This document shows, piece after piece, positions 7,666 through 64,000 of a stretch of DNA of 64,000 nt. The notes under the pieces were generated by a model that did not search any database, was not told the origin of the DNA, and worked only from the letters and a program-made list of their open reading frames with translations. Source of the DNA: an uncultured Bacteroidales bacterium (GTDB lineage: Bacteria; Bacteroidota; Bacteroidia; Bacteroidales; VadinHA17); the NCBI GenBank assembly GCA_963809855.1, contig CAWELF010000001.1, positions 1,245,980-1,309,979 of the forward strand, read 5' to 3'. The translations under genes were made by a program, and so were the position numbers. Numbering within the stretch: position 1 is the first letter of the stretch; the number at the start of each line of letters is the position of its first letter.

Positions 7666-7672
7666 GCAGATC

Positions 7673-48030: not shown

Positions 48031-48141
48031 AATAATATTTATCAATTTATCCGATAATTATTATTCCTGGCTGACAGAAGATTGAGTAGGGAATCAGAAA
48101 ATGATCCTTGCTTTTCTTCCCGAAAGCTTTGAATAATATTT

Positions 48142-48340
48142 TGTATGGCAGGTCTTCTGACTTATCCCGGTCTTTTGAAGCCTTCCCATCCCGATTAACC
48201 GGAACAGTGGCAGGTAGTTCAAAAAACCATCATCCCGTAAAAGACGGGATCAGGCATCACAGCAGCGGGTACTGTTGCGGATTCAAACCGCATTCCCTTT
48301 TCATCGCAATGATTTTATCTCATTGCAACACCAAAACATT
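48142..48340 (-). ncRNA. Cobalamin (AdoCbl) riboswitch
   Basis: Minus strand: tggtg...aaaagggaatgcggtttgaatccgcaacagtacccgctgctgtg...gccactg...gggaagg...aagtcagaagacctgcc. Confidence 0.95.
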
Positions 48341-48341
48341 A

Positions 48342-48349
48342 CAAATATA
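48342..48349 (-). promoter_or_regulatory. -7 box for riboswitch-btu transcript
   Basis: TATATTTG immediately upstream of the riboswitch. Confidence 0.65.
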
Positions 48350-48499
48350 CATGTTATTTTGATGAGAGGGTTTAAGATCACTTCACAGATATTAACATTT
48401 ATCAACAATGTTGTAAATATCTAATTCACAATATATTAACAAAACATAATATTAAAATGAAGGATAGCGGTGGATGGAAAAACCTGTTTTTTATATAGC

Positions 48500-49534
48500 C
48501 TAAATCGTTCCGCAGGAATTTCTGACAATGAGTTCAGGTGATATGTTTACCTGTCGTTTAAATTTTCCTTTTCCTGAATTTTTTATCTCCGACCAAATCA
48601 TGTTCGCAACTTTTGTCGACATACCGGATAGTGGTTTCCGGAGGCAGGTTACCGGGGAAAACATCAGGTCAAATCCTGTTCCCTCCTCCATTGAGATTAT
48701 TGCTACGTCCTGTGGAACTCTCAATTTCTTTAACCTTAGCATGGTCATTACCGGATATACAAGGTCTGCGTTCATTATTATCATTACATCTGCCCGGTAA
48801 GGAGGTCGGAGGAATCGGTCGAACTGATCAAAATTGACACCTTCATCAGTCAGTGGTTTACGCATCTCAACAACTACTGGTCTGTTTACAGAGGGTTTTT
48901 GAGCAAGAGCGTCAATAATATCCTGAACTGCTTCAGCATTAGCTTGTTTACATTTCAGATCATTTACAATAAGAATATTTGAATAGCCAAGTTTATCAAT
49001 GTGTTTTGCAATAAGAGCAGCTCCTGCAACAGTATCGGTGCATACCGTATTCAAACGCAGGCTCTTTACTGGTCTTTCAAGTACAACAAATGGGTAATCG
49101 GTAGTTTTAAGTCCGCGAATAGTATTTTCATCAGCTGCATCACCCAAAAGGATAAGACCGCTGTAAAACTTTTTAAAAGCTCCTACCAGTCTGTCATATC
49201 TTTGATCATCAGGGTCTTTAGTAACAATGGAGAATCCTACTCCAATACTAAGAAATGCTCTTTGTAGGAATGGGGTTATCTGAATAACGAAAGGATCATT
49301 CAAAGAAGGAACAATCATCCCCAGTACTCCCGGCTTTTCTTCAACAGGAGAGCTTTCACTTTTTTCATGCATTGATTCGAAGTAGCCCATTTGTTTCGCA
49401 AGATGGAGCACCTTCTCCTGGGTATCTTTACGAATACCCTGCTGGTCAGCTTTATTATTTAATACCAGTGAGACTAACGTACCCGAAACTCCAAGTCTCG
49501 CAGCCAAATCTTTATTCTTAAATTTTTTTCCCAT
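48500..49534 (-). CDS. LacI family transcriptional regulator
   Basis: KDLAARLGVSGTLVSLVLNNK HTH, RVPQDVAIIS, PELIVRNSC. Confidence 0.9.
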   Translation of the reverse strand: MGKKFKNKDLAARLGVSGTLVSLVLNNKADQQGIRKDTQEKVLHLAKQMGYFESMHEKSESSPVEEKPGVLGMIVPSLNDPFVIQITPFLQRAFLSIGVGFSIVTKDPDDQRYDRLVGAFKKFYSGLILLGDAADENTIRGLKTTDYPFVVLERPVKSLRLNTVCTDTVAGAALIAKHIDKLGYSNILIVNDLKCKQANAEAVQDIIDALAQKPSVNRPVVVEMRKPLTDEGVNFDQFDRFLRPPYRADVMIIMNADLVYPVMTMLRLKKLRVPQDVAIISMEEGTGFDLMFSPVTCLRKPLSGMSTKVANMIWSEIKNSGKGKFKRQVNISPELIVRNSCGTI

Positions 49535-49611
49535 TTCCCCATTTTATTGGAATAATTAAATTTAGTTCTTTTTTTGAATGAGAAAATGCAATTAAGATTA
49601 TTTAACAAAAT

Positions 49612-49643
49612 AAAAAAGGCATTGCATCAGCAATACCTTTTTT
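49612..49643 (-). terminator. Intrinsic terminator of pyrG-yidC
   Basis: Minus strand aaaaaaggtattgc-tgat-gcaatgcc-tttttt. Confidence 0.8.
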
Positions 49644-49665
49644 AATGTAATTATCAACTAATTAA

Positions 49666-51642
49666 CTATTTTTTCGGAGGGTTGATTCCACGTTGTTTTG
49701 CAGCTGCCTCAAGCCGTTGCTGCCACTTAGATTTCTTGACAGGCTTCTTCTTGTTTTCCTCAAGTTTGGCAAGAACAGCTTCTGCATTTACAAATCTTTT
49801 CGATATTAAGTTCTGTCCGAATGTTATCATATTCGCCAGAAAGTAATAGTATGTCAAACCTGCAGAGAAGTTATTGAGTATAAGCATAAACATGATTGGC
49901 ATCATATACATCATCAGCTTCATTCCCGGCTGATCAGATCCCGGTGTCGAGCCTGTCATTCTCATTGTGAGCAAGGTTGATGCAGTCATGAGCAGCGTGA
50001 AAAGGCTCACATGATCTCCATACATCGGGATCATGAATGGAAGCTTAAGTATTGAATCGTAGGTCGACAAATCGGTTGCCCAAAGAAAATGTTCCTGTCT
50101 TAATTCAATTGAAACAGGAAAGAACCTGAACATTGCAAAAAGGATAGGCATCTGCAGCAACATTGGAAGACAACCACCCATCGGGTTCACTCCTGCCCTC
50201 TTGTATAGATCCATCGTTGCCTGCTGCTTTTTCATAGCATCCTCTTTCTTTGGAAATTTCTTTCCAAGTTCTTCAACCTGAGGTTTCAAAATTTGCATCT
50301 TAGCAGTGCTCTGGTAAGATTTCAGGGTAAGAGGAAATAATACAATTTTGATGATCAGAGTAAGAATAAGAATTATTAAGCCGTAATTAACAATATATTT
50401 ATTAAGCCAGTTGAAAATAGGAATAATAGCAAACCTGTTAATCCAGCCGATTATATTTTTTCCGAGGAAGACCAGCTTCTCGAGTTCGAGTCCCTCTTTT
50501 TTAAGGATTTTAAAACTATTTGGTCCGTAATACAACTTCATGCTGATAGCATTCGAAGATGAGAGATTGTAAGGAACACCGATCTCAGAAGTGTTATAAC
50601 GGGTATACTTTGGAGAAGCTATAGTTCGGGTGGCTGAAAGCGAGCCATTCAGAAAGAAGTCGTTTGATATGATAACAGATGAAAAGAACTGATCCTGAAA
50701 TGCAACCCAGCTGAGTTTTGTTGTCACATCAACCTTTTCTACTTCTTTACTCTGTCTTTGCTTCAGGTAGGTAACATCATCCTGATAATATTTATAGGTA
50801 ATGTCTGAGTAATTCTCTTCATTCTGTCTTCCCTTTTCCTGCTGAGGCATATACATTTTCCAGTCGAGTGTAATGCTGTTCTGATTTGCAGCAATAATCC
50901 CTTCCATCGAGTTAAAGGTTACATTAAAGCCAACGCTGTATTTATCGGGAGCCAGTGTATACTTATATTCAATGTACTTATCATCAGCGGCATATAGTCT
51001 CAGACTTACGGTTTCTGCCTGCTTACCTACAACATACGTTTTTTGATCGCTTACCGGTTTAAAATAAAGATTATTCGTTTGTACTGCCTTATTATCAGTA
51101 GTAAAGAAGTTAAACCCAAATACTGTTGAGTCGCCGGAAAACATCACCAAAGGCAGACCATCGAAGGTTTTATAATCTTTCAATCTGGCAGAATAAACCC
51201 TGCCGCCTTTGAGCGAAATCTTAAGTTCTACCTTATTATTTTCGAGGGTAATAAAATCATTTTCGCCAGTGGCTGCATTTGAAAAAATGCCGTACTGGTT
51301 TACATCTGTTTGTACAACAGGAAGATTATTTGCTGTATTTACTGTATGTTCAGTATTTGGTTTCTGAGCGCTTATGGTATCTTCCTTCTGAACTCCGGTA
51401 AAGCCTCCCAATTTCAGGTTAAGTTCATTTAGTTTTGCCAGGGCAACAGGCTGGGTTGGTTTGAATTTCAACGCGTTAATATACTCTGCCCGTGCTGCTT
51501 CCAAATCTCCTTTGGCATAAAATTGTTCTGCAGACACTACAGCTTTCTCATAACCTTTATTCAAACGACTGTTATTATAGATACCAGCTCCAATGAAGAT
51601 TGCAAAAATCAGAATTATACCAGTTATTGTATTTCTATCCAT
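49666..51642 (-). CDS. yidC: Membrane protein insertase YidC
   Basis: MDRNTITG, NYGLIILILTLIIKIVLFPL, GVNPMGGCLPMLLQMPIL, FLWATDLS, AGLTYYY. Confidence 0.96.
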   Translation of the reverse strand: MDRNTITGIILIFAIFIGAGIYNNSRLNKGYEKAVVSAEQFYAKGDLEAARAEYINALKFKPTQPVALAKLNELNLKLGGFTGVQKEDTISAQKPNTEHTVNTANNLPVVQTDVNQYGIFSNAATGENDFITLENNKVELKISLKGGRVYSARLKDYKTFDGLPLVMFSGDSTVFGFNFFTTDNKAVQTNNLYFKPVSDQKTYVVGKQAETVSLRLYAADDKYIEYKYTLAPDKYSVGFNVTFNSMEGIIAANQNSITLDWKMYMPQQEKGRQNEENYSDITYKYYQDDVTYLKQRQSKEVEKVDVTTKLSWVAFQDQFFSSVIISNDFFLNGSLSATRTIASPKYTRYNTSEIGVPYNLSSSNAISMKLYYGPNSFKILKKEGLELEKLVFLGKNIIGWINRFAIIPIFNWLNKYIVNYGLIILILTLIIKIVLFPLTLKSYQSTAKMQILKPQVEELGKKFPKKEDAMKKQQATMDLYKRAGVNPMGGCLPMLLQMPILFAMFRFFPVSIELRQEHFLWATDLSTYDSILKLPFMIPMYGDHVSLFTLLMTASTLLTMRMTGSTPGSDQPGMKLMMYMMPIMFMLILNNFSAGLTYYYFLANMITFGQNLISKRFVNAEAVLAKLEENKKKPVKKSKWQQRLEAAAKQRGINPPKK

Positions 51643-51668
51643 TATTTAATTTTGATTAGTTGATGTTG

Positions 51669-51724
51669 AGACGCAATGCATTGCGTCTTTAATGTCTATA
51701 TTATATTGATAAGCAATGCATTGC
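51669..51724. repeat. Perfect 20-bp palindrome (REP-like) plus partial copy
   Basis: agacgcaatgcattgcgtct at 51669-51688; gcaatgcattgc at 51713-51724. Confidence 0.75.
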
Positions 51725-51728
51725 AGAC

Positions 51729-53354
<1,626 letters not shown>

Positions 53355-53370
53355 TCAGAACCTATATTTA

Positions 53371-55269
53371 TTACTCATCAAAACCTGATTGGTCGATCAT
53401 TTTGACCTTTTCCTCAAGCGTCTTAATAAGCTTCTTGGCGCTGTCAATTTTTTCCTCTACCTCTTTAATCATAGTATCGGCTTTTGTTGATTTTGCAAAG
53501 AAACCAATATTATTTTCCCACAACACGATATCACTTTCCAACTGTTTAATCTTGGTAAAGAACTTATCCCTTTCGTTTTGTACTTTTCGAGTAGCCTTAG
53601 GATTTGTCTTAAGACTATCGAGTTTTGTTTTATATTTCAGGATACTCTTATCTTCATCACCTATTTTCAGCTTATCAAATTCTTTGTTAAGTGCGTTTCT
53701 GTATTTAGTTGTAATCTCATCTTTCATATTAAAAGGAACAAAACCAATATCTGTCCACCTTCTCTGAATATCCTTAAGATGTTCAAAGGCAGCCTGTACA
53801 TCTGCTCCCGGTACAAACTTTTCAAGCTCGTCGATTATAGCCAGTTTTGCTTTGAGATTATCTTCGTAGGATGTATCCAGTTCCGCGAAGAACTGAGTTT
53901 TTCTGTTGAAGAAATGGTCGCATGCTTTGCGGAATCTCTTCCAGCATTTTTCAGATTGCTTACGTGGAACAGGACCAACTTCCTTCCACTCTTTCTGCAG
54001 CTTTATCAACGCGTCGGAAGTGGATTTCCAGTCAGTGCTTTCCTGAAGCGCTTCAGCCTGCATGCACAATTCTGTCTTTAACTGCAGATTGGTAAGCTGA
54101 ATCTCTTTGTTATCCGAATAGAAACTTCTTTTCTTTTCAAAAAATGCATCGCATGCATCACGAAATCTCTGATATACTTTATTATTCTGCTTTTTAGGGG
54201 CAAATCCGATAGTTCTCCACATCTTTTGCAGTTCAACAACCTTATCTGCCCTTTCATCAAAATCTTTGAAATTCTTAAATTCCAACAAATTGATAGCCTC
54301 TACTTCCTCACATAAAGCAATCTTAGCTTCAAGATTTTTACGTTGTTCCTCTTTCTGCTTTTCGAAATACTCATGATGGCTTTTATTAATCTGAGAAGTA
54401 GCTTCTTTAAACCTTTCCCAAATATCATTTTTCGATTCAGGAGGAACCGGTCCAATCTCCCTCCACTGATCGTGAAAGTCCTGCAAAAATCTGAATGCAT
54501 TTACAGGGTTTGGTTCAAGAAGAAGTGCTTCAGCTTTTTCGCATAAAGAGATCTTCGATTCCAGGTTTTTCTTAAGATCGAGGTCTCTTAATTCTTTATT
54601 GATTTTTATATAATCATAGAAAATCTCAACATAATGATGATAATTTTCCCATAGATCTTTGAGTGAAGATTGCGGAACAACACCTGTGGTGTGCCATTCA
54701 TTCTGCAGTAAACGAAAATCATGAAAAGTTTTGTTTATCGACTCTTCACGATTAACCAGTTCCTTAATCTTGTCGATTATCTCATACTTTTTCTTAAGAT
54801 TCTCATATTTTTCAGCTTCCTGAATCTTATTAAAATCGGTTTTTTTCTCTTTGAACTTTTCCAGCAGCTGTTTTACTCTTGCATCATCTGAGTCTACCCA
54901 GGCCCTGTAATCTTCTATTTTTCCTCCGTCCTCGAGAAATTTGGCCTTTCTTTCATCGGCTTCCTGCTTCAGTTTTTTATAAAAGAGAAGTTTTATCCTA
55001 TCAACATCGTCCCGTATTTCTGCAGGAGCACGATTTTCAACTATAAGACTCAATGTCTCAACCAGTTCGTGTTTCGAATACGACGAATAATCAACTGGTG
55101 GAAGTTCTATTTCAGTAAAATCAGTTTCGTCTTTAGGCAGGAGTTCTTCCTTCTCAGCTTCAAGTACTTGCGCGTTTTCTGCTTGTGTGGCATCCTCAGT
55201 TTCGGCAGCATTATCATTTGCCCCAAATTGTTCTTCATGAACAGAGTCATCCGGATTTTTCTTGGTCAT
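53371..55269 (-). CDS. DUF349 domain protein
   Basis: Repeated K..LCE.AE.L...LQ..W..IG.VP...W.RF..ACD.FF units; acidic N-terminus. Confidence 0.9.
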   Translation of the reverse strand: MTKKNPDDSVHEEQFGANDNAAETEDATQAENAQVLEAEKEELLPKDETDFTEIELPPVDYSSYSKHELVETLSLIVENRAPAEIRDDVDRIKLLFYKKLKQEADERKAKFLEDGGKIEDYRAWVDSDDARVKQLLEKFKEKKTDFNKIQEAEKYENLKKKYEIIDKIKELVNREESINKTFHDFRLLQNEWHTTGVVPQSSLKDLWENYHHYVEIFYDYIKINKELRDLDLKKNLESKISLCEKAEALLLEPNPVNAFRFLQDFHDQWREIGPVPPESKNDIWERFKEATSQINKSHHEYFEKQKEEQRKNLEAKIALCEEVEAINLLEFKNFKDFDERADKVVELQKMWRTIGFAPKKQNNKVYQRFRDACDAFFEKKRSFYSDNKEIQLTNLQLKTELCMQAEALQESTDWKSTSDALIKLQKEWKEVGPVPRKQSEKCWKRFRKACDHFFNRKTQFFAELDTSYEDNLKAKLAIIDELEKFVPGADVQAAFEHLKDIQRRWTDIGFVPFNMKDEITTKYRNALNKEFDKLKIGDEDKSILKYKTKLDSLKTNPKATRKVQNERDKFFTKIKQLESDIVLWENNIGFFAKSTKADTMIKEVEEKIDSAKKLIKTLEEKVKMIDQSGFDE

Positions 55270-55566
55270 AATCAATCCTTTTATATTTCAGCTCTTTATC
55301 AGTATTTTACACCACGGCTTCCCATGGAATTTTCAGAGTACGAAAATATTGAAATATTTATTAAAACTCAAAGAATTAGCATAAATAAATGTAAGAATCA
55401 GCGTTTAAGAATATGTGACGAAAATAGTCGATAATTCAGAAAGCAGATAAATTCGGTTTATATGATTACCACTTAAGTAGTTTTAAAATATTAATAATAT
55501 ATTTGGTTATAATTTAAATGGTTTTAATAAATCGACAATTTCTCAATATCAATTATACATATTTAT

Positions 55567-55746
55567 ATGAAAAACAGGGATATTATAGTATTCGCAGTTA
55601 TTTTAGTTTATGCAGCTGTCAGGTTATATATGAAATATGGTAGAAAGGAGAAAAGTGATTCGACTTCAGCTACAAAGACGGATTCTGACACAAAGTTCTT
55701 TTCATCCTCAAAAGAAGATGAGTATGAACCTTATTCAAAAAAATGA
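55567..55746 (+). CDS. 59-aa single-TM small protein (not in ORF track)
   Basis: MKNRDIIVFAVILVYAAVRLYMKYGRKEKSDSTSATKTDSDTKFFSSSKEDEYEPYSKK; fills the gap up to the convergent HlyD gene. Confidence 0.6.
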   Translation: MKNRDIIVFAVILVYAAVRLYMKYGRKEKSDSTSATKTDSDTKFFSSSKEDEYEPYSKK

Positions 55747-55753
55747 TTGTAAT

Positions 55754-57043
55754 TTACCTTTTGTTTTTTGAAACCAAATAACGGAAAGGGTTAACAATCT
55801 TCTGGATAAGGCGTAGATCTTCGCTGATGATTTCTGCTGTGCCAACCATATTTTGGGTGAATTCAAGCTTCTTTCCATACAAAGTGTTCAAACCATCCGG
55901 CAGGTCAATTTCAATTATGTAAGCATCACCTGTTGGAACAAGGGATTTCGATTTCACCACTCCCCTAACCATCCCGTATTCAAGATATGGATAACCACTT
56001 AGCTTGATATTCACTAATTGTCCGGGTTTAACTTTGCCCGATCGTTGCATTTTAAGATTGATTCTTCCCAGGTAACTGCCTGCATCAATCGGCACAATGC
56101 TTAGCACAGGTTCATCTTTTATTACAGACTGATTAATGCTCCAGAATCTTGTGAATGAGACAGTTCCATCAATAGGAGATATTAAAAGATAATTGTTTTC
56201 CCATATTTTAATCTGGGCTTTCAGGTTCATAAACGATTCTCCCAGAATTGCCACATACTTTTCTTTTTCCTGATTCCTGTTAATTCTATAATCCACAAGT
56301 AATTGCCTCTTTTCAGCAAGCTCTATCAACTTTGAGGAATGATCCAGTCGAACCTGCTGTAATTCGATGTTAAGGCGTATTAGTGATTGATGAGATTTTT
56401 CAAGTTCACTTTCGGGGATGACCTTATTCGCATAGAGAGAAGAATCGCGCTTGTATTTTCTTTCTTCAAGATTCCTGTTCTCTGAATTTAATTTCTCTTT
56501 TATAACCAGCCTGTTTATATATTCCTGGATTCCATTTATTTCATCATTAAGTGAATTGATCTTGTTCCCATAAAAATCATTCAAAGTATTGCTGTTCAGA
56601 TCTGATAAATTCTTTAGAAATGTCGAATAGAAACCCTGAAGTTCCCCAAGCTCAGAAAATACTGGAAGCGATCGTGCCTGAAGCAGCTCGGGTCTGCTGA
56701 TTGTATCAATGGTTCGTTTAAGTGATTCAATCTCGGTCATTGAAGCAGTTGTCTCCATTACAGCAATTAACTGACCTGCAGCAACATGCTCCCTTTCCTT
56801 TGCATAAAGATTTTTTATACGTCCGGAAATCTTCGTCACAAGGGTTACCGGAGGATTAACTGTTGTTATTTCAACTGGCGCAGGAATTGTATCGGGATAT
56901 CTGATCAACCATGCAAAAAAGATAAAAACAACAAAAACTGAAAACATTATGGTGGTCCCCCATCGGAGGATCTTTCTGGGAGGTCTTCCCATAATCTCGC
57001 GAACAGGATCGGAATATAATATTTCAGGTTTGCTGTCTTTCAC
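55754..57043 (-). CDS. HlyD family membrane fusion protein of peptide exporter
   Basis: GTG start; TM, coiled coil, LISPIDGTV, SGKVKPGQLVNIKLSGYPYLEYG. Confidence 0.9.
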   Translation of the reverse strand: MKDSKPEILYSDPVREIMGRPPRKILRWGTTIMFSVFVVFIFFAWLIRYPDTIPAPVEITTVNPPVTLVTKISGRIKNLYAKEREHVAAGQLIAVMETTASMTEIESLKRTIDTISRPELLQARSLPVFSELGELQGFYSTFLKNLSDLNSNTLNDFYGNKINSLNDEINGIQEYINRLVIKEKLNSENRNLEERKYKRDSSLYANKVIPESELEKSHQSLIRLNIELQQVRLDHSSKLIELAEKRQLLVDYRINRNQEKEKYVAILGESFMNLKAQIKIWENNYLLISPIDGTVSFTRFWSINQSVIKDEPVLSIVPIDAGSYLGRINLKMQRSGKVKPGQLVNIKLSGYPYLEYGMVRGVVKSKSLVPTGDAYIIEIDLPDGLNTLYGKKLEFTQNMVGTAEIISEDLRLIQKIVNPFRYLVSKNKR

Positions 57044-57052
57044 AGGTTTATT

Positions 57053-59239
57053 TTAATTGCCAAGTTCAAGTTGATTTTTTACCAGGTTATAGTATGCACC
57101 TTTATTTGAGATAAGCGATTCATGATTACCGGATTCGATTATCCTTCCGTTATCAAGCACCACTATCTTATCTGCATCTCTCACAGTGCTCAGGCGGTGA
57201 GCAACAACAATTACAGTCTTCCCGATATAAAATCCTGAAAGGTTTTCAATTATAGCTTTTTCATTATTGGCATCAAGAGAGTTTGTAGCTTCATCGAAAA
57301 TAATTATACTGGGATTTTTATATATCACCCTGGCAATCAGCAGTCGCTGCTTCTGCCCCTGGCTCAAACCATGACCGTTAGCGCCAATTTTAGTGTTATA
57401 CCCCAGAGGAAGAGACTCAATAAAACCCCTGATGTTGGCAATTTCCGCAGCATTGACCAGCTTTTCCTCATTAATTTCTTCAGTTCCCGGTGCAATGTTA
57501 TAAGCTATTGTATTCTGGAAAAGAAAACCGTCCTGCATAACCGCTCCTACTTTTTCGCGCCAGATTTTAAGGCTCAGATTGTTTAAGCGTGTGTCACCGA
57601 TAAGTATTTCTCCGCTTACAGGTTCATAAAAGCCAAGAAGCATCTTGAGCAGTGTCGTTTTTCCGCTTCCACTGGTACCAACTATCGCGGTGATTTTATT
57701 TTCTTCAATAAACAGGTCCACATCCTTCAGGGCAAATGGCGATCGTGGTCCTTCGTACTGAAACGACAGGTTGTTTATATAAATGTCTTTATTGTCAGGG
57801 AGTTTGCGCACCTTCATCTCCTGGTTAGGTTCTTCCTCCTCCATTTCATGAATTTCAGCGAGTCTGTCGAGGCTCATTTTTGCGTCCTGTGACATTCTGA
57901 AGAATCCAATAATCTGATTTACAGGCACATTAAGCTGACCAATAATAAACTGGACGGCCAGCATCATACCAAGTGTCATATTACCATTGAGAACTGCGGT
58001 AGCTGCAGTGATGGTAATGAGGATGTTAGTTACTTCATTAATAAATGTTGCACCTGCTGATTGATACTGTATTATACCAAGTCCCTTTACCTTTAATCCA
58101 AACAAAGTTGCCTGCAGCTTTTCCCAATCCCATCTGGTACTAAGTTCACTTTGAGTTAACTTTATCTCCTGCATACCATTTACAATGTTTATCAACTTAT
58201 TATTTGATGCAGACATCTGTTTAAAACGTTGATGATCGAGCCTTGCCCTTGACTTCATAAACAAAGAAACCCAAATGATATACAGAACGGAACCAGCTAT
58301 GAATAATGCCAGAATTTTCAGGCTGAAAATTGCCAGGACAATTCCAAAAACAACCATATTGAAGAAGGAAAACAGAATGCTCAGACTTGTTGAAGTAAGA
58401 AATTCTTCAATTCTGTTGTTGTCGTCGATTCGCTGAAGTATATCGCCAGTAAGTTTCGTATCAAAAAAAGCAACCGGAAGCGACATTAGTTTCTGCAGAA
58501 ACCCGGATATTACGGCAACATTTACCCTCGATCCGATATGCAAAAGAAGCCATCCTCTGATAAATTCAACCGACATTCTTCCTATCACAAGCGCCAGCTG
58601 TGCGAAGAGGATGAGATAAATAAATCCTATATCATTATTATTCAAGCCAATATCAATAATGGCCTGAGTAAGAAAAGGGATTACAAGCTGAATACAGCTT
58701 CCCAAAAGCAAACCGAGAATTAGTTGAAACAGGTATTTTCTGTACAGTCGAAAATACTTATATAAAAAATTGAAGCCTTTAGACTTCACGTGCTCTGCCT
58801 CGTTTTCAAATAAAGCAGGTGTCGGTTCAATTATAAGAACAAGTCCTGCTGGTTTACCATCTGTTTTTGTTGCAGCCCAATTCCTTACGAACTCATCGGT
58901 ATTGTACTTTATAAGTCCAATAGCCGGGTCTGCAACCCAGATTTTCCCGTTCTTTATTTTATAAACGACAACAAAGTGTTTTTGCCGCCAATGCACAATG
59001 CAGGGAAGTGGTACATTGTCGTTCAGCATGTCAAAAGGAATCTTAACCCCTAAAGTTCTGAAACCTAATGAATCTGCAGCTTCAGACAAGCCAAGGAAGG
59101 AGACACCTTCCCTTGTTATATAACATTTTTTTCTAAGTGATTCAATTGAAAAGCTCATTTTGTAAAACTCTGCAACCATTTTCAGGCAGGCAGGTCCGCA
59201 ATCCATCGCATCGGGTTGATTTACAAAAGGGAAGGACAT
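57053..59239 (-). CDS. Peptidase C39-containing ABC transporter (PCAT, double-glycine peptide exporter)
   Basis: QPDAMDCGPACL (catalytic Cys), HWRQKHFVVV (His), ADPAIG; TMD; GTSGSGKTT, LSQGQKQR, FDEATNSLD. Confidence 0.95.
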   Translation of the reverse strand: MSFPFVNQPDAMDCGPACLKMVAEFYKMSFSIESLRKKCYITREGVSFLGLSEAADSLGFRTLGVKIPFDMLNDNVPLPCIVHWRQKHFVVVYKIKNGKIWVADPAIGLIKYNTDEFVRNWAATKTDGKPAGLVLIIEPTPALFENEAEHVKSKGFNFLYKYFRLYRKYLFQLILGLLLGSCIQLVIPFLTQAIIDIGLNNNDIGFIYLILFAQLALVIGRMSVEFIRGWLLLHIGSRVNVAVISGFLQKLMSLPVAFFDTKLTGDILQRIDDNNRIEEFLTSTSLSILFSFFNMVVFGIVLAIFSLKILALFIAGSVLYIIWVSLFMKSRARLDHQRFKQMSASNNKLINIVNGMQEIKLTQSELSTRWDWEKLQATLFGLKVKGLGIIQYQSAGATFINEVTNILITITAATAVLNGNMTLGMMLAVQFIIGQLNVPVNQIIGFFRMSQDAKMSLDRLAEIHEMEEEEPNQEMKVRKLPDNKDIYINNLSFQYEGPRSPFALKDVDLFIEENKITAIVGTSGSGKTTLLKMLLGFYEPVSGEILIGDTRLNNLSLKIWREKVGAVMQDGFLFQNTIAYNIAPGTEEINEEKLVNAAEIANIRGFIESLPLGYNTKIGANGHGLSQGQKQRLLIARVIYKNPSIIIFDEATNSLDANNEKAIIENLSGFYIGKTVIVVAHRLSTVRDADKIVVLDNGRIIESGNHESLISNKGAYYNLVKNQLELGN

Positions 59240-59365
59240 TTGTAGAAGCAGAAAATTGATTTATAACTAAAGTAAAGATATTTATATTTTGATTAGGATT
59301 ATAGTCTTATTAGGATAAAAACTGAACCATCTGGTCATTAACCTGATTTTAGGTTTTGGAAATAT

Positions 59366-59373
59366 TATATTTG
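59366..59373 (+). promoter_or_regulatory. -7 box for ECF sigma gene
   Basis: TATATTTG 21 nt upstream of ATG. Confidence 0.55.
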
Positions 59374-59394
59374 TCAACTGATACTTAACAATTA

Positions 59395-59967
59395 ATGGGT
59401 TTCTTTAAAAATGTATCTGATAAAAGCATAATAGATGGCGTACGCAATCAGGACGACAAAATTCTGAATTGGCTGTATGACAATTATTTACCCCAGGTCA
59501 GAAGTTATGTATTCAATAATAGCGGAACTGCTGAGGATGTTTCGGATGTATTTCAGGATGCAATTATTGCACTTTATACACAGATAACTGAAGATGACCT
59601 GAATCTTAGAGGAGATCTGAAAGGATATTTTTATGGCGTTGCAAAAAACATCTGGAACGTTAAGTTAAGGAAGGAAAGAAGAACCACTGAACTGGAATTT
59701 GACCCTGTCGATGCAGAAGACTCTGACCAAATGAATTATCTTGTACTTGAGGGCGCCATTAACAGAGCATTTTTGAAACTCCAACCTGATGAGCAGATGG
59801 TATTAAAAATGTTTTCAGAGGGCAAATCATACGAAGAAATTGCTCTAAAAATGGATTATAAAAATGAGACCTATGCAAGAAGAAAAAAATACTTGTGTAA
59901 AGAAATACTGCTCGATATCCTTAAGGAAGATCCTGAATATCAGGATCATTTTCGTTTAATGAACTGA
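59395..59967 (+). CDS. ECF-type RNA polymerase sigma-70 factor
   Basis: Region 2 (LYDNY..V..GTAEDVSDVFQDAIIALY, YFYGVAKNIW) and region 4 (EGKSYEEIALKMDY..YARRKKYLC). Confidence 0.9.
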   Translation: MGFFKNVSDKSIIDGVRNQDDKILNWLYDNYLPQVRSYVFNNSGTAEDVSDVFQDAIIALYTQITEDDLNLRGDLKGYFYGVAKNIWNVKLRKERRTTELEFDPVDAEDSDQMNYLVLEGAINRAFLKLQPDEQMVLKMFSEGKSYEEIALKMDYKNETYARRKKYLCKEILLDILKEDPEYQDHFRLMN

Positions 59968-62900
59968 ATTGTCAGAAAGCTGACAAGAATAACAATTAGC
60001 AGTGAGCCCCCGGCTATTAAATATTTTGAAAAATACAGAGGTTCATTATTGCCATAGATTACAAGCGTTGACCAGTAATAGGGATGAGATCTTAGCTGAT
60101 CAATATTTTTCAAATATGTGATTCTTGCTTTTCTAAGCGCTCCACTCTTCGATTTACCCCATTTCAGATTCTGATAAAATAATTTAACGATATCAGTTCC
60201 TGATTTGTCTTCAATCTCCCACATCGACATTACGACTGACTGACTGCCAGAGTATATAAATCCCCTGGCAAGACTAAGAATTCCCTCACCTGAGTCCATC
60301 AGGCCTGTTCCTGTATTGCAGGAACTCAATACAACCATTTTTGCTTTCAGAGGAATTCCGTAAACCTCGTAGGTCTTCAGATAACCATCATTTAATGTAT
60401 CATTTTTATGGCTGAAAATCAATGTGGAACGCATTGGATCCTTAATGTTGATCAATGTATGCATTGCCAGATGAATGATATCAAACTTACCGGATTCTGC
60501 TTTGTAATTTGATTCACTTGCCTCGTCATTTTCGTAGAGTTTTCCTCTTGTAATCTCCGAAACATATTCAGCCTCCTGCCTTGCAAAAGGAAGGTCCTGA
60601 AGCAAACCGCCATCAGCTTGCCTGCTCAACAATACTTTCTGGATATCAATAGGTTCAGGGTAATTCGGAGCAAATGCAATAAGCTTTTTACCAAAATTAA
60701 AAGTCTTCCTCTCAGATTCTGCCATAAACGTGGCGGAATATGTATAGGATATATCATAATCTTTCATCAGATAATTAATATCACGATAAAAAATATTGCT
60801 GTCAGAGCTGATGGAAGTCGGGATTGTTTCAAATGGAATATACGCCAGAAGGTTATCAGGAGAAATTATCAGCTTGTCGGAAATCAGATATGGTAACATT
60901 GGAGCTATGAGAGTATTATACAATTTAAACCCGATTGTCTGGAAATTCCCAAATGCCGCCCGGGCATCTATGTCTGGTGAAGGAATTGAAAGCAGTTTCC
61001 GGAATTGATTAATTTCAGAATAGAATGATGTATCTATTTTTATCGAAATAAGTTTCTGATATTTCCTGTTCGCAATGAAAACATACAACAAGGTATCAGA
61101 TGAAACATAATTAATATAATTTCCAGTTCGTCCGATAATTGATTGAATATCACTAAGTTTAGCAACCTGGGTGTTAAATTTATTTGAGTAGTAATCAGGA
61201 TATTTTTTCTCGAATATTACAATTAATGAATCTCTGCTTTTCACTGCACCAATCAGGCTTTCCTTCCAGTCTTCAATAAGAGAAGAATCAGGTTTATCAA
61301 CTGCCTGCTCTTCAGTGATTCTCGCATTTAGCATATTAATCTCCCTCTGGAGTTGTTGCTCCATATCTGAAATGTTGGCAGGAATATGAAATTTTGAAGC
61401 CTTTAATTCGCGTGAGGAAGAAAGTAAACTTGCTGCTTTGCTCTTTTCTGAATAGGTAAAAGCCTTTTCCAGATAAACTTTGTCTGACGTTTTGTTATAA
61501 AGGAGATTAAAATCGCCGATCGCACTCAGGTAAGAATTTCTGTAGTTCTCCCCCAAAATTAATCTTGAATCCTCCTCTGTCAGATTAATACGTACCCTTT
61601 CGACAAGTGTAACAATAAATTCTGAAGTACTTGATGCCGCCATAAGGAACTTATCATCAGATGTTTGCAAATACAATTCCCATAAGATCCTATATTTAGC
61701 CTTAAAAACACTGAGAGTCCTCCTGTCGATTTTAACTGAATCTATTGAAGGGTTATCAAATGTTTTTGAGAGCTGATTATTTTTATTCTTATTGAAAAGC
61801 ATGGATTGAATTATTTCAAGCGCTTTCATGGAATTGCCTGCTTTGGCAAGCGAAAGGGAATAGCCAATATAAACAGATGTTTTAAATAATGGGTCCTGAT
61901 TGTTTTTATCAAGATAAGTAATGCATTCTTCAAAGCATTCAATCGACTTTTGATAATCGAGCATATATTCTCGCAGATAGTCGGCATAATTGTTAAGCAC
62001 CCAGTAATAAATATGCAATCCCTCTCCTTCAGTAGATGAAGCTTTTTTAAGTGCATTTAGCAGAAGTGATTCTCCTTTTATTTTATTTCCTGAGTTGCCC
62101 AGGAAAATGGAGTAACTGTTTATCATGTTATATGCGAGGGATGAATTGGTAGAAAGGGCTTTTGCAATTCCTTTCTCATAATATTTGATAGCAGTCTCAG
62201 GCAATCCCAGGTTTGAATAGGTAACTGCCATGCTATTCATTAAGTTTATATAGTCATTATTAAGATCGAGACGGTTAGTATTGTATATTGATTCAGATTT
62301 ATCAAGATAAATTCTGGCTTTCGAAAAATCTGCCAGCCTTACATAACTAACACCCAGGTTATTATATAGATTAAAAGCATTTTCGGGAGTAGCTACCTCG
62401 GAATAATTGCTTAGTATTGACAGGGCAGTATTAGAATAAGCTATTGCCTTTTCATAATCCTGCAGTTCAATGTAAGCAGCAATAAGTGAGGAATAGATAT
62501 TTATCAGGAAAGGATCAGATTCTCCGGATAAACTCTTCGTAACCTCAAGGGATTTTAGGGTATATTCCTCAAGTTTTCTAAGATCTCCTGTTTCCAAATA
62601 TGCAAGACCCAGGTTGTAGAGGGTTTTAGCGTACCTGCCGTCTTTATCTTTATTCTCATCTCTGATATCAAGAGATAATTTTAAATAATATATCGCTTTA
62701 TCAGGATTTCTTATCAGTTTGTAGTATACTCCAATATAATAATAGGAATCGGCTAATATTTTTCTGTCAGGATTTGTCCTGGATATTTTCTGAACAATTT
62801 TATCTACAATGAATTTGCCCTTTCTAAAATCATTCTTTGAAAGTAAATTAAGAAGTGACAGGTTTAACTGATTGATTTCTTCGGAGTATTTACTTCCGAA

Positions 62901-63044
62901 ATTTTCAGAAGTCTGAACTGATTCACTATTTGACTTTTCGCCTGAATATAAGAAAGAGTTACCTGACCGGGAAGATATATTAATCCACCCGCTGAGTAAT
63001 AAAAGTCCGAAAACCTTAAATGAAATCCCCCCTGATCTTATCAT
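59946..63044 (-). CDS. TPR-CHAT (caspase-like) protein with N-terminal signal and C-terminal TM anchor
   Basis: TPRs (YYYIGVYY, LYNLGLAY, YNNLGVSY), IISPDNLLAYIPFE, IIHLAMH, VVLSSCNTG, SLARGFIYSG, SMWEIED, HPYYWS, C-terminal hydrophobic helix + KRK. Confidence 0.92.
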   Translation of the reverse strand: MIRSGGISFKVFGLLLLSGWINISSRSGNSFLYSGEKSNSESVQTSENFGSKYSEEINQLNLSLLNLLSKNDFRKGKFIVDKIVQKISRTNPDRKILADSYYYIGVYYKLIRNPDKAIYYLKLSLDIRDENKDKDGRYAKTLYNLGLAYLETGDLRKLEEYTLKSLEVTKSLSGESDPFLINIYSSLIAAYIELQDYEKAIAYSNTALSILSNYSEVATPENAFNLYNNLGVSYVRLADFSKARIYLDKSESIYNTNRLDLNNDYINLMNSMAVTYSNLGLPETAIKYYEKGIAKALSTNSSLAYNMINSYSIFLGNSGNKIKGESLLLNALKKASSTEGEGLHIYYWVLNNYADYLREYMLDYQKSIECFEECITYLDKNNQDPLFKTSVYIGYSLSLAKAGNSMKALEIIQSMLFNKNKNNQLSKTFDNPSIDSVKIDRRTLSVFKAKYRILWELYLQTSDDKFLMAASSTSEFIVTLVERVRINLTEEDSRLILGENYRNSYLSAIGDFNLLYNKTSDKVYLEKAFTYSEKSKAASLLSSSRELKASKFHIPANISDMEQQLQREINMLNARITEEQAVDKPDSSLIEDWKESLIGAVKSRDSLIVIFEKKYPDYYSNKFNTQVAKLSDIQSIIGRTGNYINYVSSDTLLYVFIANRKYQKLISIKIDTSFYSEINQFRKLLSIPSPDIDARAAFGNFQTIGFKLYNTLIAPMLPYLISDKLIISPDNLLAYIPFETIPTSISSDSNIFYRDINYLMKDYDISYTYSATFMAESERKTFNFGKKLIAFAPNYPEPIDIQKVLLSRQADGGLLQDLPFARQEAEYVSEITRGKLYENDEASESNYKAESGKFDIIHLAMHTLINIKDPMRSTLIFSHKNDTLNDGYLKTYEVYGIPLKAKMVVLSSCNTGTGLMDSGEGILSLARGFIYSGSQSVVMSMWEIEDKSGTDIVKLFYQNLKWGKSKSGALRKARITYLKNIDQLRSHPYYWSTLVIYGNNEPLYFSKYLIAGGSLLIVILVSFLTIQFIKRK

Positions 63045-63195
63045 TTATACCACCAATTTCTGACCCAATAACGTGCTTTATTACAAAGATTAAAAATTTT
63101 GATCCCAAATCTAGTTCATTTTAGTCAAAAAATGGTCTTTGTATATATCTGATTATGTGCGTTTTAGAAAATATTTTAAAAATAGTTCATTTTTT

Positions 63196-63246
63196 CGTGT
63201 CACAAATCGGCATCTACCGACACGTAGCAATATAAAAGGACACGTA
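63196..63246 (+). promoter_or_regulatory. Candidate ECF promoter / repeated GACACG motif upstream of peptide gene
   Basis: cgtgtc at 63196, gacacgta at 63219 and 63239; gtcaca-N18-cgta spacing. Confidence 0.35.
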
Positions 63247-63276
63247 ATTATTTAAAAACCACATAAAATTAAAGCT

Positions 63277-63408
63277 ATGAAAACTCAGACTTTCGAAATG
63301 ACAAAAGACATTTTCAGTACGTTTGCATTGGTTAATGAAGAGATGATAAAAGTTCGTGGCGGAAGTGAACCAGAAGTACACCCAACTCCTCCTCCTGTAG
63401 TAATCTGA
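63277..63408 (+). CDS. 43-aa double-glycine leader peptide precursor (not in ORF track)
   Basis: MKTQTFEMTKDIFSTFALVNEEMIKVRGG-SEPEVHPTPPPVVI; L-x-x-E-E-M-x-x-V-x-GG leader pattern; A-rich translation start; PCAT 4 kb away. Confidence 0.85.
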   Translation: MKTQTFEMTKDIFSTFALVNEEMIKVRGGSEPEVHPTPPPVVI

Positions 63409-63412
63409 TCAA

Positions 63413-63447
63413 AAAATTACTCTTGTTTTATCGAAAACAGGAATTTT
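63413..63447 (+). terminator. Hairpin/terminator after peptide gene
   Basis: aaaatt..cttgtttt-atcg-aaaacagg-aatttt. Confidence 0.55.
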
Positions 63448-63623
63448 AAAGTTTGATTTAATATTTGACTTCAGGCATTATTGACTTAATTTATTGTCGA
63501 TTTATTGATGTAACTTCAGAGCATTATACACTGTTAAGGTATATTGCTGTAATAGAGCAGATTACCATAATACCAGGTAGTTATGTGTTTGAATGGCGAT
63601 TCAAAAATATTATAAAGTAATTT

Positions 63624-64000
63624 ATGAAAACAAATGATTTTTCATATCTCATTGAACGGTACAATGCCGGAGATATGAGTGAAAATGAAAAAATAAGGTT
63701 CGAGAAAGAACTTGAGGGGAATAAAAAACTTCAATATGAAGTAAATCTGAGCAGGAAGACTGACGAGATTCTTAAAAATCAGTCTGTTGTTTCCCTAAGA
63801 AGAAAACTACAGGAAATTGAGAGCAGAAGGACAGTAAATGTTCCTGTCAGAACCAGAAAGCTACCTGTATATATCAGATATGCAGCTATTGCTGCTATAT
63901 TGATAGCTGTGGGGAGCATTACTCTCTTTACCGGGAGAAACATGACCGGTGATGAAATTATCGATCGATATTATAAAGCTTATGAACCACCAACAGTTTC
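63624..64000 (+). CDS. Anti-sigma-like membrane protein, truncated by window end (not in ORF track)
   Basis: MKTNDFSYLIERYNAGDMSENEKIRFEKELEGNKKLQYEV... helical N-terminus, basic stretch, TM RYAAIAAILIAVGSITLF, then exported part; frame open to the end of the window. Confidence 0.75.
   Translation, partial: MKTNDFSYLIERYNAGDMSENEKIRFEKELEGNKKLQYEVNLSRKTDEILKNQSVVSLRRKLQEIESRRTVNVPVRTRKLPVYIRYAAIAAILIAVGSITLFTGRNMTGDEIIDRYYKAYEPPTV

Follow-up and report, generated by a model that had tools for sequence, protein, structure and literature searches.

In the sigma-E pathway of Escherichia coli (DegS, RseA, and RseP), the C-terminal end of a peptide activates a site-1 protease, the anti-sigma factor is cut, and RseP completes the process. 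In type III-E CRISPR systems, Craspase combines Cas7-11 with the TPR-CHAT protein Csx29 (tetratricopeptide repeats followed by a caspase-like CHAT domain), which cuts Csx30, a protein that holds a sigma factor of the extracytoplasmic function (ECF) type; this system is cytoplasmic and RNA-guided. The closest described relative of the locus reported here is DdvA of Myxococcus, a single-chain anti-sigma factor with a periplasmic TPR-CHAT region, for which signal-induced self-cleavage of the linker followed by RseP action has been proposed (PMC11506125). In the part of that paper on which we draw, the signal is described as unknown, CHAT site-1 cleavage is said to be beyond validation before the signal is known, and fused DdvA forms are reported only from Myxococcota and one Comamonas (PMC11506125). 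Here we describe a locus at the end of a 64,000-nt stretch of DNA from an uncultured Bacteroidales bacterium (the window; contig CAWELF010000001.1 of assembly GCA_963809855.1, positions 1,245,980–1,309,979), analysed together with a further 18 kb beyond its end (L002). Its core module resembles Myxococcus DdvA/DdvS in split form, and the locus encodes, beside the protease, a peptide with a double-glycine (GG) leader that is predicted to be exported. We give an even chance to the reading that this locus is a circuit in which a peptide activates a site-1 protease, with a split, DdvA-like module of sigma factor, anti-sigma factor, and protease as its base.

The original prediction named six contiguous genes with intact catalytic residues, and all six are present. 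They encode a HlyD-family periplasmic adaptor of 429 aa (55754–57043, minus strand), a peptidase-containing ATP-binding cassette (ABC) transporter (PCAT) of 728 aa that joins a C39 peptidase, a six-helix ABC membrane domain, and an ATPase (57053–59239, minus strand), an ECF-type sigma factor of 190 aa (59395–59967, plus strand), a TPR-CHAT caspase-like protein of 1032 aa with predicted export and C-terminal anchoring (59946–63044, minus strand), a GG-leader precursor of 43 aa (63277–63408, plus strand), and a putative single-pass anti-sigma factor of 248 aa (63624–64370, plus strand; the window cuts the gene at 64000). The HlyD gene follows the PCAT gene after 9 nt and is read in the same direction. 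The sigma gene diverges from the PCAT gene across a 155-nt spacer and converges with the CHAT gene, which it overlaps by 22 nt at the CHAT 3' end. The peptide and anti-sigma genes diverge from CHAT, with the peptide gene embedded between the other two. As had been anticipated, the locus continues past the window, where the anti-sigma gene is followed by a HisKA/HATPase kinase gene (253 aa; 64452–65213 in window numbering, L002:1452–2213). The earlier remark that no histidine kinase is in view therefore holds inside the window, but the next gene outside it is a kinase of the same operon. The 4.56-Mb genome has one copy of each component, and we hold it to be highly probable that the genes of the locus form one functional unit.

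In the circuit that we propose, the PCAT would cut the 43-residue precursor after Gly-Gly and, together with the HlyD adaptor, export the unmodified 14-residue core. The peptide would get into the periplasm and bind a TPR surface, the foremost candidate being the fast-evolving N-terminal TPR region of the CHAT protein. Binding would activate the membrane-proximal CHAT domain to make a site-1 cut in the linker of the anti-sigma factor, probably after Arg127, and an RseP-like M50 protease (one of 447 aa is encoded in the genome) would finish the release of the sigma factor. The sigma factor would then read a single promoter ahead of the peptide gene, giving positive feedback through the peptide, reset through newly made anti-sigma factor, and an output in the form of a sensor-less histidine kinase. 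For the chain from CHAT to anti-sigma factor to sigma factor, the proposal draws on conservation, on topology, and on a modelled complex. For the step from peptide to CHAT, it draws only on genetic linkage, on signal-like peptide variation, and on the N-terminal TPR region of the CHAT protein being the fastest-evolving part of the system.

The 190-aa protein exceeds the cut-offs of Sigma70_r2 (30.8 against 24 bits) and TIGR02937 (60.7 against 42.9 bits), while Sigma70_r4_2 remains under its cut-off (19.9 against 25.7 bits); having regions 2 and 4 alone, it would be classed by its sequence as an ECF (group 4) sigma factor. The 248-aa protein has no match to a Pfam anti-sigma domain, NF052375 (E 0.008) is far under its cut-off, and the N-terminal 80 residues contain no Cys and no His, and thus no zinc-binding CHCC domain. 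Its AlphaFold2 (AF2) model (predicted local distance difference test, pLDDT, 82.8) shows three N-terminal helices ahead of a transmembrane (TM) segment at about residues 82–102, a linker that is disordered (pLDDT <50 at 126–132), and a confidently modelled ectodomain (135–247) of TPR repeats, a family also matched by the sequence. A profile of this protein matched 171/401 sampled genomes of the phylum, often with several copies each, and the best 29 loci outside the window were taken as the phylum-level set. In 29/29 of these loci a sigma homologue lies directly upstream of the anti-sigma homologue, which outweighs the weak family scores and is why we regard the 248-aa protein as the partner of the sigma factor. 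Judged by this gene order, it behaves as the anti-sigma factor of the 190-aa sigma factor, with sigma binding predicted, and the earlier description of the TM gene as anti-sigma-like is upheld. A single hydrophobic segment was found at residues 84–102 of the window's protein and, at the chosen threshold, in 28/29 anti-sigma homologues, with one showing two and one none.

A CHAT-profile match was detected in the 1.5-kb flank of 13 of the 29 phylum-level anti-sigma loci, ten of them with scores ≥220. The sigma and anti-sigma genes are not adjacent in the window's genus, and adjacent homologous pairs occur in eight loci at the level of the order. As far as gene content across these genomes tells, the triad of sigma factor, TPR-bearing anti-sigma factor, and CHAT protein is an older and wider module that usually occurs without PCAT or peptide. 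Three order-level and named loci (L059, L188, L201) carry two anti-sigma paralogues, one directly behind the sigma gene and the other, accompanied by the kinase, behind the peptide gene; the window's genus retains just the peptide-linked copy. In four loci of Prolixibacter and Prolixibacteraceae (L176, L200, L209, L210), the anti-sigma protein is ~500 aa long, double the usual length, and its ectodomain is thus larger.

The CHAT domain of the 1032-aa protein is well supported (PF12770, E 7e-54, 183.6 bits), TPR families also match, and His858, His862, and Cys909 are invariant in 27/27 sequences, nine of which come from other families. In the AF2 model (pLDDT 81.9, predicted template modelling score 0.75), a short N-terminal signal-like helix (residues 7–17) and a disordered stretch (21–50) are followed by TPR repeats (51–420), a helical scaffold (441–622), the CHAT domain (~640–1000), and a TM helix (1007–1031). 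The fold matches human and yeast separase, DdvA (8rw5, 8rot), and the TPR-CHAT protein of Craspase (7zoq, 8d9f, 7y8t) with E ~1e-13, at just 10–13% identity. With a His-Cys dyad and preceding helical repeats, the protein has the make-up of a TPR-CHAT protease, and catalysis is predicted from these residues. The CHAT domain ends ~6 residues ahead of the TM helix and a basic tail lies beyond it; in the model, this arrangement would place the catalytic domain on the outer face of the inner membrane. All 26 CHAT homologues compared have a C-terminal hydrophobic helix with basic residues and a charged-then-hydrophobic, signal-like N-terminus, and in 20/26 the N-terminal stretch exceeds the hydropathy threshold. 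We consider the CHAT protein to be exported because of the look of its own N-terminus, these homologues, and the precedent of DdvA.

To model the complex, residues 155–1003 of the CHAT protein and the anti-sigma ectodomain (103–248) were each given their own custom alignment. Three runs scored 0.70, 0.71, and 0.70, compared with 0.01 for the best of three controls; the partner had a pLDDT of 84, and the runs shared ≥70% of their contacts. The mark used for this score is reached by 58/80 solved complexes and by 2/110 mismatched pairs, rates that are approximate with custom alignments. In the model, residues 123–129 of the anti-sigma protein (around Arg127-Ser128) lie against CHAT residues 862–863 (the catalytic His) and 943–949 (including the invariant Asp946), and TPR loops of the anti-sigma ectodomain (165–168, 197–204, 232–235) are paired with CHAT residues 688–695, 750–754, and 980–987. 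Both sides of the interface are among the best-conserved parts of the two proteins. Arg127 is invariant in 23/23 aligned anti-sigma homologues and Ser128 nearly so, both within the disordered linker; in 30 phylum-level homologues, Arg occupies the aligned column in 22, four more have Arg two positions on, and three have Met. The substrate-like pose of this invariant Arg-Ser pair near a membrane-proximal protease supports, at the level of a model, what site-1 cleavage would predict. The suggestion that CHAT acts on the anti-sigma factor is strengthened accordingly in the modelled complex, and we consider it likely.

Comparison with DdvA/DdvS, as far as described in the part of the DdvA paper used here, shows how close this module comes to a known system. 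Both have an ECF sigma factor held (in our case by prediction) by a single-pass anti-sigma factor, a periplasmic TPR-CHAT region of the separase/craspase type with a His-Cys dyad, and a flexible juxtamembrane linker near the active site, for which a CHAT site-1 cut followed by RseP is proposed. DdvA, however, is one polypeptide that would cut itself in trans within a dimer, whereas here protease and anti-sigma factor are separate membrane proteins and the ectodomain of the anti-sigma factor is just a small TPR domain. DdvA also has a zinc-binding CHCC anti-sigma domain, of which none is seen in the 248-aa protein, and it controls a CBASS/CRISPR defence island, whereas here no target other than the peptide operon is visible and the locus codes for a candidate ligand. 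With two genes and no CHCC domain, the locus would work like DdvA but is not a member of that group. The original prediction had taken Csx29 and Csx30 as its precedent; DdvA/DdvS, with a periplasmic TPR-CHAT region fused to the anti-sigma factor, is closer (PMC11506125).

The likeness to Craspase is that a TPR-CHAT protein cleaves a sigma-binding regulator after an allosteric trigger, which for the present locus is a prediction. Craspase is cytoplasmic and bound to a CRISPR effector; here the protease carries export and anchor signals, no cas gene or CRISPR array was found at the locus (all of its open reading frames, ORFs, were assigned otherwise), and PADLOC returned no match for the CHAT, sigma, anti-sigma, or kinase proteins. 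In its proposed mechanism the circuit also resembles DegS, a membrane-anchored periplasmic site-1 protease that is switched on by a peptide. DegS differs in being a PDZ serine protease that senses the ends of misfolded outer-membrane proteins under stress, whereas the enzyme here is of the clan-CD-type TPR-CHAT kind and its candidate ligand would be dedicated and exported.

The exporter appears intact. The PCAT matches Peptidase_C39 (PF03412) at E 4e-36 and 124 bits (cut-off 22), ABC_membrane (PF00664, E 8e-28), and ABC_tran (PF00005, E 6e-31), the latter two also over cut-off and all in one chain. Gln8, Cys14, His88, and Asp104 are kept in 18/18 aligned genus sequences (own included), and Cys14 and His88 are, from their position, the residues that we take to be catalytic. 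The adaptor matches PF13437 (E 2e-07) and, under cut-off, TIGR01843 (E 1e-19), and has one N-terminal TM segment. The PCAT is the only C39 gene of the genome, and a GG precursor, as is characteristic for a PCAT substrate, is encoded 4 kb away in the same locus. In this precursor, a leader of 29 residues that terminates in Gly-Gly precedes an acidic core of 14 residues with five Pro and no Cys; leader positions -4, -7, and -12 are hydrophobic, as the rule for GG leaders has it. No RiPP (ribosomally synthesised and post-translationally modified peptide) enzyme was found up to 9 kb downstream or upstream in the window, and the sole radical-SAM gene, 3.9 kb downstream, is QueE-like and no peptide maturase. 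The locus is therefore no RiPP cluster, and the earlier observation of a missing modifying enzyme extends to the downstream region.

In a census of 24 other genomes of the window's genus (18 loci fetched; CHAT orthologues defined by E 1e-190 or better), an orthologous peptide ORF lies between CHAT and the anti-sigma gene in 18/18 loci, one of which has two tandem copies. The resulting 20 cores are all different, with lengths of 14–18 aa, 2–5 Pro, 1–3 acidic residues, and no Cys. Mean pairwise identity among these 20 peptides is 59% in the last 20 leader residues and 59% in the last six core residues, compared with 21% in the first six core residues. As a sequence pattern, a conserved leader and C-terminal end combined with a variable core start is that of a processed signal and not of a random ORF. 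At linked loci beyond the genus, the GG peptides are likewise short, acidic, and mostly Pro-rich, and an unlinked PCAT locus (L066) encodes three classical hydrophobic, bacteriocin-like GG peptides. The GG-peptide gene is duplicated in several loci (L036, L060/L184, L174, L176, L177, and L210), mostly in tandem; in L210, two identical copies each lie beside a long anti-sigma paralogue. The idea that the peptide mimics the anti-sigma linker was dropped, as some likeness was seen in this genome alone and none in other families.

Signalling by GG peptides is known from Gram-positive bacteria, where the streptococcal pheromones ComC and BlpC are exported by ComAB and BlpAB and sensed by ComD and BlpH. 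The present locus shares with these a short unmodified GG peptide, a C39 PCAT accompanied by an accessory protein, mature peptides that vary behind a conserved leader, and, in the proposed circuit, positive feedback on the peptide gene. The Com and Blp receptors are membrane histidine kinases with a response regulator in monoderm cells, whereas in this diderm the kinase has neither a TM segment nor a sensor domain and no regulator lies next to it. Unlike in Com and Blp, the conserved partners here are a protease and a sigma/anti-sigma pair.

PCATs of this kind also occur elsewhere in the phylum, with different cargo. Among the 401 sampled genomes, 45 encode close PCAT homologues (42–57% identity), and 40 such loci were fetched, from other orders and classes and a few from the same order. 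The sigma/anti-sigma/CHAT triad was found in 0/40 of them, and the GG peptides next to these PCATs are long, Cys-rich, and often in arrays (L084 of genome G411, for instance, has >10 Cys-rich GG-leader peptides in an array and a PCAT without triad). The Cys-rich GG arrays of these loci (L069–L108) are probably bacteriocin-like cargo and a class distinct from the short acidic peptides. A PCAT hidden Markov model score >1000 was considered as a mark of the CHAT-linked group and rejected, because phylum-level PCATs without triad score alike.

This cargo bears on the main rival explanation, namely that the peptide is the output of the system: the module would respond to a different cue, from the envelope or from outside, and the exported peptide would target other cells or the envelope, for instance as effector, as matrix or adhesion peptide, or as signal to another receptor. 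It is in line with bacteroidetocins, which share the GG leader, C39 PCAT, HlyD-type adaptor, and phylum with our system and which, like the studied GG-leader peptides of Bacteroidetes in the part of that paper used here, are toxins (PMC6671954). The cores at our loci, however, are 14–18 residues long, acidic, and Cys-free, unlike the long Cys-rich peptides beside the 40 other PCATs; no immunity gene was found at the locus; and 20 differing cores with a conserved C-terminal end are typical of signals. Overall, we regard the peptide as mere output as unlikely, and further evidence on both sides follows from the distribution of the genes.

Within the genus, CHAT orthologues were present in 21/24 other genomes, with two more showing weaker, paralogue-like matches and one none. 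The sigma, CHAT, and anti-sigma genes were found together in 18/18 loci, PCAT and HlyD in 17/18 (the contig of the remaining one ends), and the kinase in 16/18 (one lacks it and one contig ends). For the order, an even draw of 201 genomes contained C39 domains in 89 and CHAT domains in at least 111, and 15 loci were fetched (with C39 and CHAT on one contig, or with C39 chosen blind) and annotated with profiles made from the genus orthologues. Six of these (L053, L054, L055, L056, L060, L065) have full sets of PCAT, HlyD, CHAT, sigma, and anti-sigma genes, each in a different gene order; two (L057, L062) are cut by contig ends and consistent with the set, and in another two (L058, L059) 13 and 9 kb, respectively, separate the PCAT from the triad. 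The linked loci represent nine further family codes (at least ten when the window's own is counted), with rearranged gene order. PCAT without triad was seen in L061, L063, L064, and L066, and triad without PCAT in L051 and L067. One genome (G135) carries two complete paralogous systems (L053, L054), each with its own very Pro-rich peptide, which suggests parallel, mutually insulated channels. In the peptide-less L051, a 400-aa secreted protein (6802–8004) is encoded between sigma and CHAT, in the usual place of the peptide, and its tail resembles, by eye, a type IX secretion sorting domain.

A second set of 80 loci (the named set) was obtained by scanning species-representative genomes with a CHAT alignment. 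It consists mostly of metagenome-assembled genomes of Bacteroidales/Bacteroidia, and it includes records of Lentimicrobium and Prolixibacteraceae as well as the isolates Prolixibacter bellariivorans ATCC BAA-1284, Sunxiuqinia dokdonensis DH1, and Labilibaculum manganireducens. A short ORF with a GG leader lies ≤1.1 kb upstream of CHAT in 47 of the 60 loci with ≥700 nt upstream, 46 times in divergent orientation, and a PCAT is present in 27/33 peptide loci with ≥8 kb on both sides but in 0/3 peptide-less loci (hand count); since close relatives of the window's genus make up many of the 80 rows, these fractions describe a clade and not independent trials. Six genomes had a peptide locus without PCAT, and a full-length C39 PCAT was found elsewhere in all five that were checked. 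The peptide is thus kept beside CHAT even without a local PCAT, which makes the link between the peptide and the CHAT and anti-sigma genes the tightest of all. The linkage of peptide and PCAT to CHAT–sigma loci elsewhere, which the original prediction had put forward as a check, hence recurs across these sets.

The same figures speak to the view that an ordinary peptide/PCAT export cluster and an unrelated sigma/anti-sigma/CHAT module are chance neighbours. Each module does occur alone elsewhere, as such a view would have it. Yet the linkage survives rearrangement across at least ten family codes, the named set shows it for peptide and PCAT alike, the type of peptide follows the presence of CHAT, and the CHAT and anti-sigma genes flank that of the peptide. 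Chance neighbourhood is consequently very improbable in our estimation. For the peptide as output, in turn, the distribution is of mixed value. Triads without peptide are common (13/60 named loci and the phylum-level loci), and these must sense something else. The position of the anti-sigma gene in the peptide operon and of the peptide beside CHAT even where the PCAT is distant, on the other hand, is better fitted by a ligand–receptor pair.

In a FastTree phylogeny of 62 PCATs, all 18 CHAT-linked PCATs group with four unlinked ones in a single 22-row clade (SH-like support 91). The CHAT-link label requires 3 changes on this tree, compared with a mean of 15.9 after shuffling, and 0/500 shuffles were as low. 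The link between CHAT and PCAT looks, from this tree, like one old event that was retained with few losses. A link of single origin that was kept in this way argues for function, yet the loci are not independent observations.

If the peptide is a ligand, the next issue is which TPR surface would bind it. The RRNPP receptors (Rap, NprR, PlcR, and PrgX) are cytoplasmic, and their peptides are exported by Sec and re-imported by Opp, with DNA binding or phosphatase activity as outputs. Here, too, TPR repeats are proposed as receptors of self-made, short linear peptides. Both TPR proteins of our locus differ in carrying export or membrane signals, and no helix-turn-helix or phosphatase domain was found in them; Rap and NprR chains among the sequence matches of the TPR part reflect generic TPR likeness. 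Across 17 genus loci, mean identity is 36% for the CHAT TPR, 59% for the CHAT domain, 56% for the anti-sigma TPR, and 78% for the PCAT. For the same loci, partial Mantel tests of peptide-core distance against each protein part, controlled for PCAT distance, gave correlations for nearly all parts, even the cytoplasmic half of the anti-sigma protein, and thus did not discriminate a receptor.

One alternative would make the small TPR ectodomain of the anti-sigma factor the peptide sensor, with the signal passing to the sensor-less kinase or directly to the sigma factor, and with CHAT serving in peptide maturation or degradation or in receptor turnover. Peptide, TPR membrane protein, and kinase do form one operon in 16/18 genus loci and in many named loci, the kinase lacks a sensor domain of its own, and the sigma-side and peptide-side anti-sigma paralogues of some genomes (L059, L188, L201) would suit such a division of labour. 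The kinase (HisKA with a weak HATPase match) is, however, missing from several complete peptide loci (L053–L056, L060, L184), and no response regulator was found at the locus. The modelled complex, moreover, puts the anti-sigma linker in the active-site region of CHAT, and the anti-sigma TPR is well conserved even though all cores differ, the CHAT TPR being the most variable part. We therefore think it quite unlikely that the anti-sigma ectodomain is the sensor. That the peptide is instead the activating ligand of CHAT, with binding read from linkage and sequence variation, comes in our judgement slightly short of an even chance.

A peptide bound to CHAT could also hold it off. As a securin-like pseudo-substrate or inhibitor, the peptide would restrain the protease, and the sigma factor would be freed when export or supply of the peptide drops. 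TPR-CHAT relatives are indeed restrained by bound peptides, separase–securin structures are among the top fold matches, and the peptide and protease genes are always adjacent. An inhibitor under control of the sigma factor would amount to simple negative feedback, which is possible but would have no need of a dedicated exporter with adaptor, and by eye the peptide cores show no similarity to the anti-sigma linker outside the genus. Such an inhibitory role thus appears improbable to us, and activation of CHAT by the peptide remains the preferred reading.

The proposed feedback on the peptide gene is suggested by its upstream region. In an alignment of 230 nt upstream of the peptide gene from 19 genus loci, one ungapped and strongly conserved stretch stands out in 19/19, with a T-run, a nine-base block, and a second block eleven bases further. 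In the window this promoter-like two-block motif (63190–63226, plus strand) consists of the T-run with a -35-like block (63190–63206) and a -10-like block (63217–63226), ~50 nt ahead of the start codon. A position weight matrix (PWM) from the 19 sites scored the window site at 51.1 bits (training sites 33–58) and the next best site of the genome at 7.7, so the promoter expected between 63196 and 63276 has its counterpart in a conserved, genome-unique motif. A loose two-block regular expression had proved unspecific (246 matches in the genome, 45 in 647 kb of loci) and was replaced by the PWM. In three other families (L059, L060, L065), one of them without a kinase in view, similar two-block motifs stand ahead of the peptide gene. 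A terminator-like hairpin follows the kinase gene (L002:2260–2290), and none was found between the peptide and anti-sigma genes. It is probable, in our assessment, that the promoter depends on this sigma factor. A conserved motif ahead of the peptide gene makes the peptide at least a target, which the view of the peptide as output would equally expect. In many genus loci, a hairpin lies 12–20 nt past the peptide stop codon (window 63409–63463; modest z of 0.6 to -4.0 against shuffles), and it may act as a leaky terminator, fixing how much peptide transcript there is relative to anti-sigma transcript.

Several points weigh against the circuit and need to be kept in mind when interpreting our results. 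Peptide-less triads (L051, L067, 13/60 named loci, and phylum-level loci) are common, so that CHAT activation in general needs no such ligand; as the triad is widespread without it, the peptide would be an add-on of one order and not the general trigger of the module. All carriers of the linked set belong to that one order and the linked PCATs seemingly have a single origin, meaning that co-occurrence is partly inheritance. The N-terminal segment of the window's own CHAT protein lies under the TM hydropathy threshold, and no outer-membrane channel or importer for the peptide was found at the locus. Regarding the modelled complex, solved relatives with substrates exist (separase, Craspase–Csx30, DdvA), and likeness to them may raise the score. 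The promoter is given to this sigma factor by exclusion, because it is the only conserved transcription factor of the locus. The motif was found upstream of sigma genes in 0/10 order-level loci and as two stray matches in 29 phylum-level loci, which leaves the operon of peptide, anti-sigma factor, and kinase as the only visible target of the promoter. Finally, the kinase fits the circuit as no more than a possible output. Considering all of this, we regard the first interpretation as partly supported.

The surroundings of the locus are ordinary. Past the kinase gene lie a PorE/OmpA-like gene on the opposite strand and then housekeeping genes; the upstream neighbours (49666–55275) include a YidC-like insertase and a CTP-synthase-like gene (both by eye) and a DUF349 protein (Pfam). 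Converging on the end of the HlyD gene is an ORF of 59 aa (55567–55746, plus strand), which has a single hydrophobic segment and no family match. The G+C content ranges from 0.32 to 0.41 over 48000–64000, and the locus shows no sharp compositional break when this region is compared within itself.

Taken by their components, anti-sigma regulated proteolysis, TPR-CHAT proteases, and GG-peptide export are known kinds of system that would here be combined, and by our comparison it is their coupling to a peptide in one order that appears new. Our literature search, which did not cover most subscription journals, yielded no paper that connects a GG peptide with either a CHAT protease or a sigma/anti-sigma pair and no split form of DdvA, the papers on CHAT and anti-sigma factors being concerned with DdvA or CRISPR and those on GG or signalling peptides with bacteriocins or streptococci. 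The main text of an ECF classification has no occurrence of 'CHAT', and its supplementary context tables could hold such a group (PMC7826278).

What triggers a TPR-CHAT anti-sigma system is posed as an open question in the part of the DdvA paper used here (PMC11506125), and the locus described in this study encodes a candidate ligand beside the protease. Because protease and presumed substrate are separate proteins here, cleavage, the predicted Arg127-Ser128 site, and the trigger can be tested with a synthetic peptide, and non-pathogenic carriers are available in culture. The triad is very common in the phylum, with its anti-sigma family in 171/401 genomes, and seems to be uncharacterised in the literature searched. 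We tentatively suggest, at somewhat less than an even chance, that an unmodified GG autoinducer, recognised outside the cytoplasm by a TPR-CHAT protease of the caspase-like kind that then cuts an anti-sigma factor, would constitute a new signalling class. If this holds true, environmental Bacteroidales, including the cultured Prolixibacter, Sunxiuqinia, and Labilibaculum, would carry out quorum sensing by regulated proteolysis. The peptide-less triad would then represent a phylum-wide, undescribed family of proteolytic signal transducers, and the present locus would be the first to provide a genetically encoded ligand for one of its members.

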